A stretch of DNA of 64,000 bases from an uncultured Acidimicrobiaceae bacterium (GCA_963734655.1 CAVTHY010000003.1:683492-747491), one strand, 5' to 3'. Numbered from the stretch's first letter, positions 3,255-63,504 are shown. Notes: a model not told the origin generated them from the sequence alone. Made by a program: numbers and translations.

Positions 3255-4292
3255 TCAGCCACCGATCATGGACATCGAGCGGTGCGGGCGCAGGAAGTCG
3301 GGCTCGTTGATCGCGTGGCCCGGGAACTTCGCCCACACCGCGCGGCGCAGAATGTTCTCGATCTCCTCGTCGGTTCCCCCCGCGCGCAGGACGTCGCGCA
3401 CGAGGTGCTCGTCGTCGGAGAAGAGACAGTTGCGGATCGACCCGTCGGCGGTGAGGCGCAAGCGGTTGCAGGTGCCACAGAACGGTTCGGACACGCTGGA
3501 GATGAGGCCGATCTCGCCGCGCCCGTCGGCGAAGCGGAATCGCTCGGCGGGCGCCACCCGATTCACGTCGGGCACCGGCTCGAGGGGCCAGGCGGCGTTG
3601 ATGCGCTCGACGACCTCGCGGCCCGGTACGAGCTGTTCGGGGCCCCACTCGCCCTGGGCGTCGAGGGGCATGAATTCGATGAAGCGCACGATGCGACCCG
3701 TCTCGCGCGCGAAGGCGGCGAAGTCGAGGACCTCGTCGTCGTTGCGCTGACGCATCAGTACGACGTTCACCTTCAACGGTGTCAGGCCGCACTCCTCAGC
3801 GACGTCCATGGCGTGTAGCACGGTCGCGAGGTCGCCGCGCCGGCGAATCATCGCGAATCGTTCGGCGCGCAACGAGTCGCAACTGATGTTCACCCGCGTG
3901 AGACCCGCATCGGCGAGCTGGGGGGCGAGGGCGGCGAGTTGGGTGCCGTTGGTCGTCAGTGCGATGTCGTCAAATCCGAGATTCTTCAGTCGCGCGACGA
4001 GGCCCACCACACCCTTGCGCACGAGCGGTTCCCCACCGGTGAGACGGATCGCGCTCACCCCCAGGGCGCGCGCCACCCGTGCCACTCTCTCTATCTCGTC
4101 GAAGGTCAGCAGCTCCGCGCGCGGCAGGAACGTCATGCCCTCCTCGGGCATGCAGTACACGCAGCGCAGATTGCACCGATCCGTCACCGAGATGCGCAGA
4201 TCGTCGTGGATGCGACCGTACCGGTCCACCAACGGTCCCCCCGGCACCGAATTACTCCCGGCTCGAGGTCCGTTCTCACCGGCGGACGCCAC
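3255..4292 (-). CDS. moaA: GTP 3',8-cyclase MoaA (radical SAM)
   Basis: [39 protein letters not shown]...CLF, C-terminal MSMIGG; start uncertain. Confidence 0.95.
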
Positions 4293-4623
4293 GTCGGGTC
4301 GATGCAGGTCGCACCGACACCGCGACTGGGGTCGCTGCTTCCACGCGCGCTGGGCGGTCCACCCTCGCGGCTCCTATCGGCGACGACCAGCGATGGATGC
4401 GGCGAGCCCCGCGCCCGCGCCAAGAATCGTTGCACGCTGTGTCATGGTCAGGAGCCTAACGAACGCCCCCCGGCGACGCGACCACTCTCGCGCCGTTGCC
4501 CGCGCAGCGTGGCCTGAGCGTTAGCCCGCGCCCTGACGTCGCAGTGGTCGTCTCTGCGTCCAGCGTTAACATGGCGCATCCGGTGGATGAAGTCGGCGGA
4601 ACAGGGAATCTGGGGCGTTTCTC

Positions 4624-5110
4624 ATGACGGGACAGGAATTCTCGCACCTTGACGGTGACGGGCAATTGCAGATGGTCGACATCTCCACCAAGGAGCCGAC
4701 GCAGCGCGTCGCCCACGCGAGTTGCCTCGTCGTCGCCCACGCCGATTCGCCCTCGGGCGCGACGCGAGACCTGGGCAGTCGACGTCATCTTGTCGGCGCG
4801 ACTCGCCGGCATCCAGGCGGCCAAGCGCACGGCCGATCTCATCCCCCTGTGTCACCCGCTCGCGCTGACCAGTGTCGGCATCGAAGTCGTCGCGCACCCT
4901 CGGGGCTACACGGTGTCATCGGTGGTCGCCACCCGAGCGCGCACCGGCGTCGAAATGGAGGCGCTGAGCGCGTGTTCGTTCGCCGCGCTCACCCTCGTCG
5001 CTTTCCTCGTGGCCGTGGACCCCGACGTCCGCGTCGAGGACTTGGCCCTGCTCCGCAAGAGCGGCGGCAAGTCGGGTGACTGGGGTCGCGACGTCGTCGA
5101 CGCCGGTTAG
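4624..5110 (+). pseudogene. moaC: MoaC-like cyclic pyranopterin synthase, +1 frameshift near 4755-4775, degenerate active site
   Basis: FSHLD...MVDIS.K in frame 4624; AGIQAAKRT..LIPLCHPL, TGVEMEAL, KSGGKSG in frame 4649. Confidence 0.75.
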
Positions 5111-5458
5111 AACCCGCGTGGACTCTCCTCTCGAGGAGCCCGCCCCGCCAAAGGTTTCTGTAACGCCTCCCCCTCGCGCGAGGACTGTAGCAACGAACGA
5201 CGGCAGTGCACTCGGACGCCAACTGGGAACGCTGCCACCCTCGACCAAGGGGGACCGACGTGAGAACGATGAGTACAGCACTCGAGTGGTCGCGTACCGC
5301 GCAGCGACCCGCGACGCCAGAGTCGCTGCCCTTCTCGCGGGCGACCGGTACGCTGACCACGACCGTCACGACCATCGGTGAAGGAGGAGCATGATTCGCA
5401 CTCGAACAGTCGCCGCGAGAGCCTCTCTCCTCCGCAGGACCGTCCGGCGGAGCCCGCG

Positions 5459-56499: not shown

Positions 56500-56900
56500 G
56501 GGGCCGCGAAATCGAACCACCACATAATGCGTAGATTGTGAAAGAGTCGACGGCCAAGGGGCTCTGGTAACCCAGATTCAAAAGACGTTCCGTGCGAAGA
56601 AACACCAACTCGACAGCGGAACCGCGATCATCACGTCGGATGAGTCCGTGGCCTACTTCGACTCGACTAGATCAGTGAAGGTAAAGGGCACGAATGGCGG
56701 TATCCCCTTCCCAACGGCATTCATGCCCTGGGGCGACGGCACCCAATTCCTCCCACTCAACAAGGCGCTCTTGTAGGCGCTCGGAAAGCCGCCTGGTGAC
56801 GAAGTTGAGGTGACGTTGGATGAGAGCATTCCCCCAGGGACCAGCCAAAAGGCGAAATAGCCAAGCGATTCACACATTGCATGGCACCCAAGGGGTCCAG
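56500..56900 (+). repeat. Degenerate direct repeat copy 1 (copy 2 at ~60110-60520) containing DUF1905 gene
   Basis: Shared blocks such as GCATTCATGCCCTGGGGCGACGGCACCCAATTCCTCCCACTCAACAAGGCGCTCTTG. Confidence 0.85.
56573..56860 (+). pseudogene. DUF1905 pseudogene
   Basis: Near-copy of 60192-60482 with AAG>TAG nonsense at 56774-56776 and a damaged 5' end. Confidence 0.75.
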
Positions 56901-57103: not shown

Positions 57104-57517
57104 TCAGTCCACTGAACCTCTGGGTACGATCCACTCGACGACTTGGCCTGTCACCTCGGCAATGTGGCCGAAGTCAGCGTCGTAGTGAACAACAATTAGC
57201 CCTCTCTCCTCGGCCGCGGCGGCGATTAGGAGATCGGGAACCTTTCGGCCACGAAGCCCCCTCTCTGCGAGTAATCGCTGCACTTGTCGTGCGCGCGAGA
57301 AGTGCAGAGCAGTGACAGGGACTAGTTCCATTACATCCAGAGCCAACGCCAGCGCGTCCCACTCGTCGACGTTTCGAGCGGAGAATCCGATCTCCAAGTC
57401 CGACGTCGCTGCCCGTCCTACCGCTCCTGCCTGGACGAGTGGTTCGAGCAATGCACGAACCGACGGTGACCTCAATCGGGTCAGAACACTCGTGTCTGCG
57501 AGATGGCTTAGCGCCAC
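57104..57517 (-). CDS. vapC: VapC PIN-domain toxin
   Basis: LADTS, DLEI.FSAR, DLLIAAAAE, VHYDADF. Confidence 0.88.
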   Translation of the reverse strand: MALSHLADTSVLTRLRSPSVRALLEPLVQAGAVGRAATSDLEIGFSARNVDEWDALALALDVMELVPVTALHFSRARQVQRLLAERGLRGRKVPDLLIAAAAEERGLIVVHYDADFGHIAEVTGQVVEWIVPRGSVD

Positions 57518-57702
57518 GCGGTTTCGCGATCCAGCAATGAAGCATCGGCCAAGGTCTGGAACGCAAATTGGACGCTTTCTTTTCTCCGCCCCCCTGCCAA
57601 GCGAAGTGCTTCATTCACCGTCGCCTTGATGGTCGGTGTTCCGAGTTCCGCTTGTGCCGCTTCTAGCGATGATTCGTCAATATCAATCAATCTCTTACTC
57701 AT
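57508..57702 (-). CDS. vapB: VapB antitoxin
   Basis: RLIDIDE..L.AA..ELGT.T.KATVNEALR; overlaps vapC. Confidence 0.82.
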   Translation of the reverse strand: MSKRLIDIDESSLEAAQAELGTPTIKATVNEALRLAGGRRKESVQFAFQTLADASLLDRETAWR

Positions 57703-57831: not shown

Positions 57832-57873
57832 CATGGCCCGCTAAGGGTCAGGCGTTCGAATCTCCTTGCTTCC
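57832..57873 (+). other. Degenerate 3' half of tRNA-Ala(GGC), att-like scar
   Basis: CATGGC....GGGTCAGGCGTTCGAATCTCCTTGCTTCC resembles anticodon, variable and T-arm; no 5' half. Confidence 0.5.
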
Positions 57874-60191: not shown

Positions 60192-60482
60192 TTGCAGATC
60201 AAGAGGAGGTTCCGTGCGGTGATCCACCAACTCGACAGCGGGACCGCGATCATCACGTGGGATGAGTCCGTGGCGTACTTCGGCTCGACCAAATCAGTGA
60301 AGGTGAAGGGCACGATTGACGGCGTCCCCTTCCAAACGGCATTCATGCCCTGGGGCGACGGCACCCAATTCCTCCCACTCAACAAGGCGCTCTTGAAGGC
60401 GCTCGGAAAGCAGCCGGGTGACGACGTTGAGGTGACGTTGGATGAGAGCATTCCCCCGGGAGCGAGCCCTCAGTCCAAATAG
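60192..60482 (+). CDS. DUF1905 domain protein
   Basis: VKVKGTIDG..F..AFMP.GDG...LP...GD.V.V. Confidence 0.75.
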   Translation: MQIKRRFRAVIHQLDSGTAIITWDESVAYFGSTKSVKVKGTIDGVPFQTAFMPWGDGTQFLPLNKALLKALGKQPGDDVEVTLDESIPPGASPQSK

Positions 60483-60498
60483 CCGAGTGAATTACCCG

Positions 60499-60531
60499 TT
60501 GCATGGCATGCAAGGGGTTATGAATTCGATT
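60499..60531 (+). other. tRNA-Ala(GGC) anticodon-arm remnant (more decayed copy at 56877-56911)
   Basis: TTGCATGGCATGCAA perfect anticodon stem-loop followed by GGGGT and decayed TTCGA. Confidence 0.5.
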
Positions 60532-60761
60532 GCCACTCCTCCGCGAAGAGAAAAGTTGGTTAAACAGGGAATTCGGGGTCTTAGAGCCACTTCTCGATCT
60601 CGCCACTTCAGCAACACCTTCAGCCACGATTGGACGTCCGTAATCGGCCTAAAGATGTTCACTTGGCCTCCTCTGTAGTGAAGAAGCAACCCTTCTTGCG
60701 ACGAGGGAGTCTGGAGCTTCTTGCGTCGCCTTTTCACTATTGTCTTACATCCTTGACCCTT

Positions 60762-60891
60762 TGGTGGAGGTAACGGGACTATGTTCGAACCCTCTTGCAC
60801 CCCTGTTTATCAGGTAGAACGTGTCGGCCAAAATTTCCATTCTCGCTTCCCGGCAACCCGAAACTCGTTTGAGCCTGATTACTCGAACCCC
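60762..60891 (+). repeat. ~130-bp degenerate direct repeat, copy 1
   Basis: GTGGAGGTAACGGGACTATGTTCGAACCCTCTTGC ... TACTCGAACCCC. Confidence 0.7.
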
Positions 60892-61010
60892 GTGAGGGTG
60901 ACAGGGTCCCGAGTGGGATCGACACCTGAGGCTGTCGTTCGCCATTGAGGTGGCCGCATGGTGACAGCATCCGCAGTTTTTGGCCCCAACTGCATTATCG
61001 TCAAGATATT

Positions 61011-61658
61011 GTGGAACTTTCCGACCTCCTAGCCTCGGCGTGGGCTGCCGTCGAGAAATCTGGAGTCCCAACGGACCAGCGATCGGTTGCCTTCAGGGAG
61101 GCGATCGCGATTCTCCGAGAGAATGGCGAGTCGCCGCTCAGTGGCGGGTTAAACGGCGCCCGGAAAGCGGCCGCGGGCAAGAAGGCTGCGGCCCCATCAC
61201 GAGGTCGGGCGACAACTCCTGCGGCGGGAAATGGGTCGGAAATCAAAGTCCCATCGGAATCCGATTTTTTTACCAGGCTTGCTGAGGAGTCTGGCGTCTC
61301 AGAAGACGACCTTCGGGACGTTCTGCAGCTCACATCGACCGGCGATGTGCACGTCACGCCCGCTACACGGAAGCTTGGGGACAGCAAGCAAAAGCAGACG
61401 CAAACGATTGCTGCGTTGGTCGCTGGAGCGAGAGCGTACGGTCTCTTAGAGTCTCCAATCGACGGCAAGAAGGTGCGAACGGAGGTTCAGAGGAAGAACT
61501 GTTATGACAGGCCGAATTACTCCTCAAAACACCTCGCAGGACTCAAGGGCCTCAACAAGGGCGGAACAGGTGACACGCTTGTCCTCACCTCGAAGTGGAT
61601 CGACGATTTCAAGCCAGCCGTGAACCAAGCTCTCGGCCGGTCAGGCGACGGCGACTGA
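61011..61658 (+). CDS. Hypothetical protein, upstream partner of HEPN-like gene
   Basis: Helical N-terminus, basic Ala/Gly linker, globular C-terminus; 8-nt gap to next gene. Confidence 0.6.
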   Translation: MELSDLLASAWAAVEKSGVPTDQRSVAFREAIAILRENGESPLSGGLNGARKAAAGKKAAAPSRGRATTPAAGNGSEIKVPSESDFFTRLAEESGVSEDDLRDVLQLTSTGDVHVTPATRKLGDSKQKQTQTIAALVAGARAYGLLESPIDGKKVRTEVQRKNCYDRPNYSSKHLAGLKGLNKGGTGDTLVLTSKWIDDFKPAVNQALGRSGDGD

Positions 61659-61666
61659 GCATCTAG

Positions 61667-62437
61667 GTGGACTTGGCCGACGTCAAAGCAGGGCTGCTGC
61701 AGGGCGGCATCCCAGAGTCACTTGTGGATCAGCTCCTTGAGACATACGTCGAGCAGAAGCGGCGGTTCCACCTCGGAGACCACAGGCCTCAAGCGGTTGA
61801 GGGAGGCAGGTTCTGTGAGGCGGCCTTTCGCATCATCCAGCATGAGTGTGCACTCGCCGTCACGCCCCTTAGTAAGAACCTACCGGGCATCTCCGACTCG
61901 ACACTGGCACAGTTTGAGAGTGCGACGAACGCTCCCGATTCGGCTCGCTTCCACATCCCTCGTGCGCTGAAGTCCATTTACAACATCCGGAACAAGCGGG
62001 ACGCCGCGCACCTCGCGGACGGAATCGACCCGAACCTTCAGGACGCGACTCTGATCATGGCGAACATGGACTGGGTGATGGCAGAACTCGTGCGTCTGCA
62101 TCATGGCGTCCCAGCCAGCGAGGCTCAGCAAATAATCGAGGACCTCGTGACACGTGAGGTGCCAGCTGTGCAGGAAATAGCGGGCCAACCTGTAATTCTG
62201 ACGGATCTTCAACCACGGGACCAGGCGCTTCTGATGCTCTACAGAGCTGGTGCCAAAGGAGCGACAATCGACAAGCTGTTGGGCTGGCTCCCAACTACTC
62301 GTCGAGACCACTTGCGGAATCGGCTCAAGAAACTTCAAGAGAACAAGCTGGTGCACATGCACGCGAACGGAAACGTCTACCTCACGATTCGAGGCATGCG
62401 GGAGGTCGAAGACCGGAATCTCGCCCAACCAGTCTGA
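61667..62437 (+). CDS. HEPN-like protein with probable C-terminal winged helix
   Basis: GRFCE helix and RNKRDAAH (Rx6H) motif; L.KL....LV......V.LT..G wHTH pattern. Confidence 0.6.
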   Translation: MDLADVKAGLLQGGIPESLVDQLLETYVEQKRRFHLGDHRPQAVEGGRFCEAAFRIIQHECALAVTPLSKNLPGISDSTLAQFESATNAPDSARFHIPRALKSIYNIRNKRDAAHLADGIDPNLQDATLIMANMDWVMAELVRLHHGVPASEAQQIIEDLVTREVPAVQEIAGQPVILTDLQPRDQALLMLYRAGAKGATIDKLLGWLPTTRRDHLRNRLKKLQENKLVHMHANGNVYLTIRGMREVEDRNLAQPV

Positions 62438-62641
62438 ACGACGGTAGTGATACTTGACCTTCCCAATCGAGTACTCCGAGCGCATTGCAAAGCACGCGGT
62501 CTGAAGACGTCAAGCAGCGCACCGATTGTCTTTGGCGAGACCCCAAGAGTGGGTTCGAATAAGGATCATCACGTTTTCGAGGGATTGGAAGTCCGAACTC
62601 GCACTTCATCAGGGACGACGTTGTACTCTTGACAACAACGA

Positions 62642-62770
62642 GTGGAGGTAACGAGAATATGTTTGAACCCCCTTGCCTTCCAGTTCATCAGGCGAGATAC
62701 TTTGGCATGTCGAACCTCCGAGCGGCCATCGACGCCTAATCCGAGCTTGAACACGGTCTACTCGAACCCC
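62642..62770 (+). repeat. ~130-bp degenerate direct repeat, copy 2
   Basis: GTGGAGGTAACGAGAATATGTTTGAACCCCCTTGC (31/35 identical to copy 1) ... TACTCGAACCCC. Confidence 0.7.
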
Positions 62771-63045
62771 ACGCAATTGCGCCTCCGGAGCGAGCATGAC
62801 CACCCTCTACGTATCCGAATTGTTGGACGTTGTCAATTTTGATCCTCGACACTGCCGAAGACGCTTCGAGGACCCAATCGCATTTTCATTTGTTTAGCCA
62901 ATTTCCAGGCCGGAGTTACTAGACCCGGGGCAGTCAATTGCTACTGCGGTGTTCGGAATCTTCGCTCATGCAGACTTCGATCAGCCGTTGACGGCAATAC
63001 TCGCCGTTCTGAAGGCCTAAGTTCAGATTGAACAAAGTGAGGCCA

Positions 63046-63504
63046 ATGGAGTCTGAGTCCAACGAAAACGAGATTTCGATAGCCGTCAATCCAGCACTTA
63101 GCACCACCGAAAGTGAAGAGCTCGCAGGCGTCTTTGCCGAGGCAGGCCACCACATCGAAGCTGGCGAAATCAACAGGAAGATTCTCGAGTCTGTACCGCC
63201 GTCAGGATTCGAGGTTTGGATATTTACCCCATCACTCAATGCACTTGTAGGTGGGGCAGCCGTCAGCGCTGTAGTGCGGCTCGGCAGGCTGATTCGCGGA
63301 ACTTTTCGGGCAATGCGGCATCGTGGCGCTCCCGGCGTGATCAGTATGCGTATCCGGAACGAAAAAGTAGTCGCGGTCTTCCACCCGGACCTCCCAGAAA
63401 TCGCGTACAAGAAATTGCTCACAGAGCCGATACCGCCCCACGGCAAGAGCGCCGAGATCGAATGGGACAGTGAGCGTCAGCAATGGCGCGATCGTCTCGA
63501 CTAG
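63046..63504 (+). CDS. Hypothetical protein
   Basis: GAGG RBS + ATG, 152 aa, protein-like composition, no recognised motif. Confidence 0.45.
   Translation: MESESNENEISIAVNPALSTTESEELAGVFAEAGHHIEAGEINRKILESVPPSGFEVWIFTPSLNALVGGAAVSAVVRLGRLIRGTFRAMRHRGAPGVISMRIRNEKVVAVFHPDLPEIAYKKLLTEPIPPHGKSAEIEWDSERQQWRDRLD

Follow-up and report, generated by a model that had tools for sequence, protein, structure and literature searches.

Closest described systems

Staphylococcal cassette chromosome (SCC) elements and their composite islands, whose Ccr enzymes are large serine recombinases (LSRs), integrate at the 3' end of a conserved gene and form multi-element arrays bounded by short direct repeats. Many of their members lack a recombinase (pseudo-SCC) and are served in trans (PMC13739063; bioRxiv 10.1101/336396). 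The locus analyzed here lies in a stretch of 64,000 nucleotides from an uncultured Acidimicrobiaceae bacterium (GCA_963734655.1 CAVTHY010000003.1:683492-747491; the whole stretch is referred to as the window), and resembles SCC in all of these respects, including the recombinase-less members. It differs in several others: the target of SCC is rlmH, whereas here it appears to be the 3' ends of several tRNA genes; the putative site on the element mimics a tRNA, with 5 nt inserted; the cassettes are far smaller (0.65-4.5 kb) and their hosts are Acidimicrobiales; and the LSR is not an orthologue of Ccr (198 bits vs. a cut-off of 900).

In the tycheposons of Prochlorococcus, hypervariable islands adjacent to tRNA genes arise through successive integrations, which push older elements outward (Hackl et al., bioRxiv 10.1101/2020.12.28.424599). 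Both systems show partial-tRNA repeats as well as degenerated remnants without a recombinase. However, tycheposon repeats copy the 3' part of the adjacent tRNA itself and their hallmark enzyme is a tyrosine recombinase, whereas here one Ala-like pseudo-end with five additional nucleotides stands behind many tRNAs, and the enzyme linked to it belongs to the serine recombinases.

The attachment sites of serine integrases (LI/A118, Bxb1, and phiC31; PMC3783163) offer a third comparison. As in those sites, the sequences at two related loci described below (L089 and L100) span ~52 bp with imperfect dyad symmetry, and the outer motif lies 5 bp further from a short common center in the element site. 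In contrast, phage serine integrases use sites inside protein-coding genes with one attB, rather than several tRNA genes with arrays, and those of mycobacteriophages are reported not to use tRNA genes (PMC9262239).

Lastly, mobile integrons share cassettes that are short, mostly lack a promoter, and contain one or two genes in a single orientation, sites of ~130 nt whose ends are conserved and whose middle varies, and cargo rich in toxin-antitoxin genes. An earlier reading of the window from its sequence alone (referred to as the sequence-only reading) had called the array integron-like, and the comparison holds for function, but not for the machinery, as IntI, attI, and hairpin-type attC are all absent. 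At the array there is neither an IntI-type tyrosine recombinase nor an attI site, and a PF00589 search of the whole genome gave matches only at C1:390 kb, C4:485 kb, C3:180 kb, and C3:353 kb, none of them less than 390 kb from the array. Further, the unit ends, ..GTTCGAACCC and ..CTCGAACCCC, are direct repeats rather than an attC-type inverted hairpin, the site precedes the cargo, and the arrays are anchored at tRNA genes. The likeness to integrons is thus purely functional, and SCC composite islands and tycheposon arrays are the better analogues.

Repeats and cassettes in the window

The sequence-only reading described a cassette-like array of ~130-bp direct repeats resembling a tRNA 3' end, each preceding orphan genes. 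Its component observations were reproduced: the order is repeat, two genes, repeat, orphan open reading frame (ORF), and the following features were delineated.

60499 to 60518, plus strand: exact 20-nt copy of the tRNA-Ala(GGC) anticodon arm
60764 to 62464, plus strand: cassette 1, a discrete block of unit 1 and two genes
60764 to 60792, minus strand: core copy 1, a tRNA-Ala-like 3' end with T-stem, T-loop with 5 additional nt (CATAG), acceptor strand, and CCA
60793 to 60891, plus strand: inner arm of unit 1, with conserved CTTGCACCCCTGTTTATCAGGTAG, semi-variable middle, and terminal TACTCGAACCCC at 60880-60891
60945 to 61658, plus strand: cargo gene 1, an ORF of up to 237 aa (homologues called at 215 aa)
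61667 to 62437, plus strand: cargo gene 2, 256 aa, with an N-terminal four-helix domain and a C-terminal winged helix
62465 to 62641, plus strand: spacer on the acceptor side of copy 2, with an inverted partial core, TTCATCAGG, and a hairpin
62629 to 62658, plus strand: promoter-like site, TTGACA-18 nt-GAGAAT, 10 of 12 consensus matches (a consensus match only)
62642 to 62670, minus strand: core copy 2, 3 mismatches relative to copy 1
62671 to 62770, plus strand: inner arm of unit 2, terminal TACTCGAACCCC at 62759-62770
63028 to 63504, plus strand: predicted orphan ORF of cassette 2, 158 aa

With up to 3 mismatches allowed, the 29-nt core was expected 0.00 times per window by chance (100 dinucleotide-preserving shuffles) and was observed twice. 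The match noted earlier between 60764-60798 and 62642-62676 (31 of 35 nt) was found as described, and similarity extends over 51 nt at 82% identity (60764-60814 vs. 62642-62692). Copies 1 and 2 are followed by GTTTATCAGG and GTTCATCAGG, respectively, as the reading had noted, and its common end block, TACTCGAACCCC, begins 116 and 117 nt from the repeat starts. The stretch of ~65 nt between these blocks is poorly conserved, so the "~130-bp repeat" stands only as two conserved ends with a variable middle.

Read on the minus strand (GGGTTCGAA-CATAG-TCCCGTTACCTCCAC(CA)), the core resembles the 3'-terminal 24 nt of a tRNA gene (T-stem, T-loop, and acceptor strand) with 5 nt added in the T-loop. Since tRNA-Ala(CGC) of the same genome ends in GGGTTCGAATCCCATCACCTCCAC, the earlier interpretation as a T-arm with a short insertion plus an Ala-type end is correct. 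At the other end of the unit, the block at 60880-60891, when reverse-complemented, is identical to the T-stem and T-loop sequence of tRNA-Val-type genes, and at locus L109 a real tRNA-Val 3' end stands where this block would be. The spacer before copy 2 contains the inverted partial core GGGTTCGAAT (62541-62550), TTCATCAGG (62605-62613), and a hairpin (CGTTGT-N6-ACAAC, 62619-62636), and is the counterpart of a module found after real tRNA genes in relatives.

Because core copy 1 is joined to a non-repeat flank, we propose that it is attR-like and represents the distal end of the array, the core itself being an attP-type (P) half-site. Core copy 2 forms a junction within the array. The window contains no tRNA at the head of the array, and a profile search of the window found no tyrosine or serine recombinase gene, in agreement with the sequence-only reading.

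The anticodon-arm copy at 60499-60518 lies on the strand opposite to the tRNA-like reading of the units, as do the tRNA-Ala(GGC) scars near the array, and represents a scar left by a separate, older series of integrations. A DDE (rve) fragment is located just past the window end, and is positionally unrelated to the repeats.

Distribution in Acidimicrobiales and association with tRNA genes

The window is generally rich in decayed tRNA-Ala(GGC) fragments and pseudogenes, and the core occurs in its own genome (73% complete) only in these two copies. Both observations would suit a reading in which the two copies are inert, decaying tRNA-Ala pseudogene fragments left by ancient duplications. Against this, the 29-nt sequence, including its 5-nt insertion, is 90-100% identical across many genera while its flanks are unrelated, and nearly identical elements end in the core at different tRNA genes (see below). 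We therefore disfavor decay of inert fragments, and regard it as very improbable. Two weak nhmmer matches in the same genome (C1:103031 and C1:106778; E ~1, not significant) have the look of decayed units, and lie downstream of the LSR gene and tRNA-Val described below.

Beyond this genome, 10 of the 301 genomes sampled from the order, belonging to several families, contained the core, as did at least 118 stretches from GTDB species genomes; the titles of nearly all of these stretches name Acidimicrobiales or Acidimicrobiaceae. Nearly all carriers are metagenome-assembled genomes of Acidimicrobiales, which are uncultured actinobacteria of soil, peat, and freshwater. The 120 distinct units sort into two architectures (referred to as types A and B) and solo cores. 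They often occur in arrays, where consecutive cores are 654-4530 bp apart (~0.65-4.5 kb), and the gene content between core copies differs among relatives. Cargo genes at these loci include those for MazF (10 loci), PIN/VapBC, wHTH, PadR, and TetR proteins. Further copies with variable gene content between them are what the sequence-only reading of attachment-site-delimited cassettes had anticipated.

The units are associated with tRNA genes: at 27 of the 29 loci with a tRNA gene within 8 kb, the units are preceded by that tRNA, which has the orientation of their tRNA-like strand, and an upstream, co-oriented tRNA is also present in L051, L052, L053, and L055. The same Ala-like core with its 5-nt insertion is found behind Val, Leu, Lys, and Ser genes and behind three Ala isoacceptors.

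Some searches yielded matches of another kind. Of the ORF "families" near units, the largest (19 loci) is only the repeat in translation. Matches of a degenerate pattern search to GGGACGATGTTCGACCCC fall in a conserved coding stretch (..GTMFDPGP..), probably of glpX, and were discarded. A comparison of flank synteny at the DNA level across 30 genomes of the family returned only a paralogous DUF1905 copy in the window's own genome.

Mobility of the cassettes

Cassettes of this kind are mobile. A 1.45-kb VapBC element, with copies 97.6-98.4% identical, is located directly behind the CCA of four different tRNA genes, namely tRNA-Ala(CGC), tRNA-Ala(TGC), and two tRNA-Ala(GGC), and a variant is found behind tRNA-Lys(TTT). 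Every copy ends in the core, followed by an unrelated flank. At L135, a second cassette is stacked after the first and is absent in L069. Likewise, other metagenome contigs contain the window block 60764-62464 at ~93% identity, with neither flank related to that of the window (e.g., L187/L188, 92.8% over 1703 nt; metagenome runs X3 and X4 also supply contigs with this block), and, together with the VapBC element at four tRNAs, this bears out the earlier suggestion that the cassettes are delimited by attachment sites. For the window's own cassettes, the contigs of four metagenome runs showed neither joints nor circles nor empty sites, so the search for circular junctions and empty sites that the sequence-only reading had recommended came back negative.

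The borders of these blocks bear on another possibility, namely that the core belongs to a non-autonomous functional repeat (MITE-like, a minus-strand tRNA-like RNA with a terminator hairpin, or an outward promoter), to which the cassette borders would be secondary. Several features fit such a repeat: a hairpin and a T-run follow the core in the tRNA-like direction, as they do after real tRNAs; in many units, a module of ~125 nt lies between inverted 13-nt copies of the core; the promoter-like site overlaps the hairpin arm and the core and is directed into the next cassette, facing the cargo; and the core is strongly conserved across families. However, contigs from elsewhere diverge from the window at 60760-60766 and at 60792/93, placing the context breakpoints exactly at either end of the 29-nt core, the pattern of a recombination site. 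Neither target-site duplications nor a transposase were seen at the units, and the spacing from the -35 element to the core differs between units. RNA-level searches gave no support either: Rfam had no match at the site even at E <=10, ARAGORN detected no tRNA or tmRNA in the window or at 12 related loci, RNAalifold returned no supported consensus fold on either strand (65 type B and 26 type A units), and the hairpin stem is conserved in sequence but without covariation. A non-autonomous repeat of this kind is, in our judgment, quite unlikely.

Other identities of the core were tried and rejected. A functional tRNA is ruled out by the 12-nt "T-loop" and the absent 5' half, a primer-binding site (complementary to a mature tRNA-CCA) by the many units without TGG before GTGGAGG, and a hammerhead (suggested by CUGAUGA) by the lack of an Rfam match and of stem II.

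Linkage to a large serine recombinase

The window's own genome contains an intact 521-aa LSR frame (C1:119273-120838) running into the 3' end of tRNA-Val(TAC). It has a Resolvase domain (1.4e-40), aligns over residues 2-473 to the CcrB model (2.5e-58), and scores best with the CcrB and CcrC models, far under their cut-offs (198 vs. 900 bits). In G198, only the last ~56 codons of the same LSR gene are left beside the same tRNA-Val(TAC), and in L089 and L100 the 3' end of this gene is followed by the core in place of the tRNA. The motif and the LSR gene end are thus physically linked, and the recombinase that the sequence-only reading had expected nearby is represented by the gene end abutting the motif at these two loci.

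When the tRNA-Val ends (own C1 and G198) were aligned with the cores of L089 and L100 using MAFFT, a single 5-nt gap opened in the tRNA ends, between GGGAC and TCGAACCC; the same gap separates the core from tRNA-Ala(CGC). Relative to attP, the attB of serine integrases has its ZD motif 5 bp nearer the center (Rutherford et al., 2013, PMC3783163), and the 5-nt T-loop insertion agrees with this half-site offset. In addition, the CC before ACCA is common to the core and to Ala, Val, Leu, and Lys tRNA ends.

The L089 and L100 sites (~52 bp) are attP-like in their imperfect dyad symmetry about GTG/GAGG, with 15 and 18 matches of 26, respectively; shuffles give 6.5 on average, and 0.08% of them attain at least 14. 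The two copies in the window score 8/26 and 7/26, and we interpret them as attR-like or junction sites. In most units, the acceptor side is flanked by a hairpin-type sequence without dyad symmetry with the core; such units are thus not complete attP sites. Inspection by eye of the tRNA-proximal end of the VapBC element revealed no obvious P' half-site. The motif stands beside the LSR remnant at only 2 of ~120 loci, no full-length cognate LSR was found beside any unit, and five unit-bearing genomes contain only distant LSRs or a remnant.

The same cassette biology at tRNA 3' ends could in principle be driven by a tyrosine integrase, in which case the core would be an ordinary att identity block and the conserved ~90-120 nt beside it an arm region in which integrase-binding sites are repeated. 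Targeting of tRNA genes is classically the work of tyrosine integrases, for which stacking at attL is natural (bioRxiv 10.1101/2020.12.28.424599; PMC9262239). Their genes or fragments adjoin units at L060, L067, and L145/L054, and a 13-nt word with two direct copies and one inverted copy per unit gives an arm-type-like pattern. However, the identity block is not copied from the adjacent tRNA, since it remains Ala-like with five additional nucleotides behind Val, Leu, Lys, and Ser genes. The ORF families near units include no recurrent recombinase cluster, and in particular no recurrent tyrosine integrase family, and the sole gene end fused to a core with dyad symmetry belongs to a serine recombinase gene. 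We therefore regard a tyrosine integrase as an unlikely driver. The enzyme is most likely a serine recombinase that would act on these sites in trans, which we favor over a tyrosine enzyme.

Proposed mechanism

Taken as a whole, we think it fairly probable that the repeats are recombination sites delimiting small mobile cassettes, which are stacked at tRNA ends by an LSR; the enzyme, the crossover position, and the mode of stacking are what we infer from the comparisons above. The core would be the attP-type half-site (P) of a family of LSR-driven integrative elements, and the matching attB half-site would be the true 3' end of a tRNA gene, where the motif for the recombinase zinc-ribbon domain (GGGTTCGA) would lie 5 bp nearer the crossover. 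The crossover is tentatively placed at the conserved CC of ..CC/ACCA. Integration would leave the tRNA intact and joined to the proximal end of the element (attL), while the pseudo-tRNA core would stay at the distal end, joined to the DNA formerly downstream of the tRNA (attR). The sequence specificity of attB would reside on the tRNA side only, and many tRNAs (Ala, Val, Leu, Lys, and Ser) could thus be used as targets.

A tRNA that is already occupied could be hit again, pushing older cassettes outward and thereby forming arrays. Canonical serine integrases are not known to recombine attP with attL, and stacking would therefore need relaxed specificity. Relaxed site specificity is known for Ccr recombinases. 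Most cassettes, of 0.65-4.5 kb with toxin-antitoxin, HEPN-like, or regulator genes, carry no recombinase, and so would have to be moved in trans. In the window, copy 1 would be the outermost attR-like end and copy 2 an internal junction, and the head tRNA of the array may have been lost or may lie in the decayed region beyond.

More tentatively, and with rather less confidence than an even chance, we suggest that these loci represent an undescribed cassette-capture system of Acidimicrobiales, in which an LSR uses the T-arm and acceptor end of tRNA genes as a one-sided attB, small recombinase-less cassettes carry a tRNA-mimicking attP half-site with 5 additional bp, and several tRNAs can be reloaded. 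If so, the site would consist of a copied tRNA end plus exactly five bases, a case in which the attP/attB rule could be read from genomes, and serine recombinases would target tRNA genes, several of them, contrary to the pattern in mycobacteriophages. It would explain the origin of tRNA-adjacent hypervariable islands in an abundant uncultured lineage of soil, peat, and freshwater, and would amount to a functional counterpart of the integron built from serine-recombinase chemistry and tRNA mimicry. Very small mobile cassettes with borders recognizable in sequence would also allow unknown toxin-antitoxin and defense genes to be harvested, an example being the 256-aa HEPN-like/winged-helix family with ~2000 unannotated members, and a short, tRNA-like, partly one-sided target could be of interest for genome engineering.

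Cargo genes of the window

None of the three cargo ORFs in the window had a match in PADLOC, NCBIfam, or Pfam. Cargo gene 1 is invariably paired with gene 2, whose unannotated family has at least 1966 homologues. At one locus with this gene pair (L186), a nearby LSR is 26% identical to that of the window's genome, and there is no unit at that locus. The full 256-aa model of the gene 2 product gave only weak winged-helix matches in Foldseek. Its N-terminal part is modeled as a helical bundle (pLDDT 90) whose best matches include HEPN entries (2hsb, Z 8.9; 1wol, 7.9; 3o10, 7.8; Csm6, 7.9), Z values below 13 not being decisive for helical bundles. In 33 homologues, R108, N109, and H115 are invariant (Rx6H), and the N-terminal domain is predicted to be HEPN-like.

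Tandem attachment-type sites in the window and in relatives

The repeats in the window are real and look like functional recombination sites, belonging to a mobile-cassette system that is specific to Acidimicrobiales. This supports in substance the sequence-only reading of cassettes bounded by attachment-type sites. Their core is a 29-nt motif resembling a tRNA 3' end, arranged with its cargo as follows:

60764-60792 (-), core copy 1, opening cassette 1 (60764-62464)
60945-61658 and 61667-62437, the two cargo genes of cassette 1
62642-62670 (-), core copy 2
63028-63504 (+), orphan 158-aa ORF of the second cassette

The repeat itself, as described from the sequence alone, was borne out in all details by a repeat finder, motif counts against shuffles, and block positions. 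The repeat finder aligned 60764-60814 with 62642-62692 (51 nt, 82% identity), the core with up to 3 mismatches occurs twice in the window against 0.00 expected from shuffles, and a TACTCGAACCCC block follows downstream at 60880 and 62759, while the middle of each unit (the core and its adjoining arm) is poorly conserved. Read on the minus strand, the core is GGGTTCGAA-CATAG-TCCCGTTACCTCCAC(CA), and tRNA-Ala(CGC) of the same genome ends in GGGTTCGAATCCCATCACCTCCAC; the core therefore represents the T-arm and acceptor end of an Ala-type tRNA, enlarged by five bases in the T-loop, confirming the proposed T-arm with an insertion. The core was rejected as a gene, as ARAGORN and Rfam gave no match. 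The two window copies are the only ones in this genome (a MAG of 2.53 Mb in 5 contigs, 73% complete).

Searched at the DNA level, 10 of 301 genomes of the order contain the core; they belong to several families and often have two or more copies, spaced by 0.8-5.5 kb. When one genome per GTDB species was scanned for the exact pattern, at least 118 core-bearing stretches were recovered, and the titles of those listed are nearly all Acidimicrobiales or Acidimicrobiaceae, with peat, soil, and lakes as sources. The 120 distinct units fall into three groups:

Type A units: core, CTTGCACCCCTGTTCATCAGGTAG, ~75 semi-variable nt, TTACTCGAACCCC; includes both window copies
Type B units: core, conserved filling of 88 nt, and another +5-nt core 120-121 nt further on
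Solo cores: the third group

Within arrays, successive cores are 654-4530 bp apart, and among the genes they enclose are those for MazF, VapBC/PIN, winged-helix, PadR, and TetR proteins. Numerous contigs of relatives stop within ~130 nt of a unit (G151:C2:111, G223:C8:113, G198:C12:123, G276:C10:128, and G385:C11:28236), which suggests that units break metagenome assemblies, either as repeats or through population polymorphism at these positions.

Mobility of the cassettes and association with tRNA genes

A 1.45-kb VapBC element that terminates in a type B unit occurs in four genomes at 97.6-98.4% identity, and lies directly 3' of the CCA of tRNA-Ala(CGC), tRNA-Ala(TGC), and two different tRNA-Ala(GGC) genes, with a variant behind tRNA-Lys(TTT). 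The flanks of these loci, before the tRNA and after the core, are unrelated to one another, and the element has neither a recombinase nor an obvious P' end (P and P' being the two attP half-sites). Of two relatives' stretches, L135 has an extra second cassette behind the first compared to L069, the divergence beginning exactly at the core end. Contigs of four unrelated metagenomes match the window core with unlike flanks, the breaks falling at 60760-66 and at either 60792/93 or 60817-20, and neither circles nor empty sites turned up among them. Cassette 1 itself recurs, with 60764-62442 present at ~93% identity in peat and moss contigs that diverge afterwards, and 60764-62464 at 92.8% identity with different flanks in two JGI contigs (L187 and L188); another stretch, L186, has both cassette-1 genes without a unit.

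At 27 of the 29 loci with a tRNA gene within 8 kb, and likewise at four larger loci of relatives, the tRNA is found upstream of the units, in the same orientation as their tRNA-like strand. These tRNAs are diverse (Ala with three anticodons, Val with two, Leu, Lys, and Ser), and the repeat is therefore no copy of its neighbouring tRNA. No tRNA gene heads the array in the window.

On the acceptor side, most units have a GTTGT-N7-9-ACAAC hairpin and a ~95-nt module ending in an inverted partial core, which also follow many real tRNA genes in relatives. The module consists of the hairpin, TTTTCCCTGGTAGATG or CCCTGATGAA, ~40 nt, and ATGTTCGAACCCC (the inverted partial core copy), as seen after real tRNA genes in L134, L136, L162, L172, and L070, and in the window at 62465-62641. 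Behind the tRNAs of the window's own genome there is no such module. No dyad symmetry exists between the module and the core, so most units are incomplete as attP sites.

A large serine recombinase as candidate partner

No tyrosine or serine recombinase was found near the array in a search of the genome, extending the earlier remark that the window has none. The genome encodes a single large serine recombinase (LSR):

C1:119273-120838, outside the window, intact open frame of 521 aa

Among NCBIfam models it matches CcrB and CcrC best, both below cut-offs, and the gene runs with its last codons into the 3' end of tRNA-Val(TAC), which is on the opposite strand. In a congeneric genome (G198), only the last ~56 LSR codons are left beside the same tRNA-Val(TAC), and in L089 and L100 a core takes the place of the tRNA after this gene end. 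In a four-way alignment, the tRNA has a single gap of 5 nt, placed between GGGAC and TCGAACCC. About GTG|GAGG, the junctions show dyad matches at 18/26 positions in L100 and 15/26 in L089 (shuffled controls: mean 6.5, at least 14 in 0.08%). In serine integrases, the zinc-ribbon-domain motif is present in attP and attB alike, but in attB it sits closer to the centre by 5 bp (Rutherford et al., 2013, PMC3783163). Since the gap and the dyad-symmetric junctions fit this rule, L089 and L100 can be read from sequence as putative attP sites (P'-P). The C1 and G198 junctions would then be attL (tRNA-P'), and ordinary units attR-like, with P joined to the sequence that was previously behind the tRNA; we infer a centre on a CC common to all target tRNA ends.

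Stacking would need the LSR to accept an already occupied tRNA, unlike canonical serine integrases, which do not use an occupied target. A precedent is provided by Ccr recombinases, which build composite SCC islands with recombinase-less members. The system is no integron, the likeness being functional only; SCC composite islands and tycheposon arrays are closest in working, and the tRNA-mimicking site is its own hallmark.

Downstream of the LSR is a low-G+C stretch (C1:108-116 kb), and C1:103031 and C1:106778 each have a weak, decayed sequence resembling a unit (E ~1). A few units have tyrosine integrase genes or fragments nearby. In L054 (from G133), a tyrosine integrase gene is directly beside a partial tRNA-like T-arm (3940-3995 and 4085-5269), 5 kb upstream of a type B unit, and L145 is arranged alike; this integrase may belong to a different integrative element in the same island.

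Cargo proteins

The 256-aa protein (61667-62437) is a member of an unannotated family numbering at least 1966 proteins, with 60-66% identity across phyla (Actinomycetota, Pseudomonadota, and Verrucomicrobiota) and an invariant R108-N109...H115, and its gene is always preceded by that of a 215-237-aa partner. Its N-terminal model is a four-helix bundle with several HEPN entries among the best structural matches, at Z up to 9, which is not decisive for helical bundles; its C-terminal domain is modelled as a clear winged helix (Z 10.6). The "HEPN unit" of the sequence-only reading is therefore likely rather than proven. Together, the protein and its partner are a candidate two-gene toxin-antitoxin or defence module. 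No family could be assigned to the partner or the 158-aa ORF.

Surroundings of the array

The G+C content drops from ~63% to ~55% at 60.5 kb and stays low for ~10 kb onward. Just past the window end is a decayed defence island:

L001:4960-14102 (C3:747959-757101), rve fragment, NOV_C gene, two TmtA fragments, split SNF2/PLD helicase

In L187, a HEPN-like cassette as in the window adjoins an intact 1153-aa SNF2/PLD helicase and an Eco57I-type methylase, probably the undecayed form of this island.

Near the array, tRNA-Ala(GGC) scars at 56877-56897, 57845-57867, and 60499-60518, on the strand opposite to the units, form a separate series. A DUF1905 gene is duplicated at 88% identity (56573-56868 and 60195-60490), each copy being followed by a tRNA-Ala(GGC) anticodon-arm fragment, and the first copy also by VapBC-like genes (57174-57614, minus strand) and a piece of a T-arm. 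The layout suggests an older series of integrations at a second tRNA-Ala(GGC) that has since died; its orientation is opposite to that of the units.
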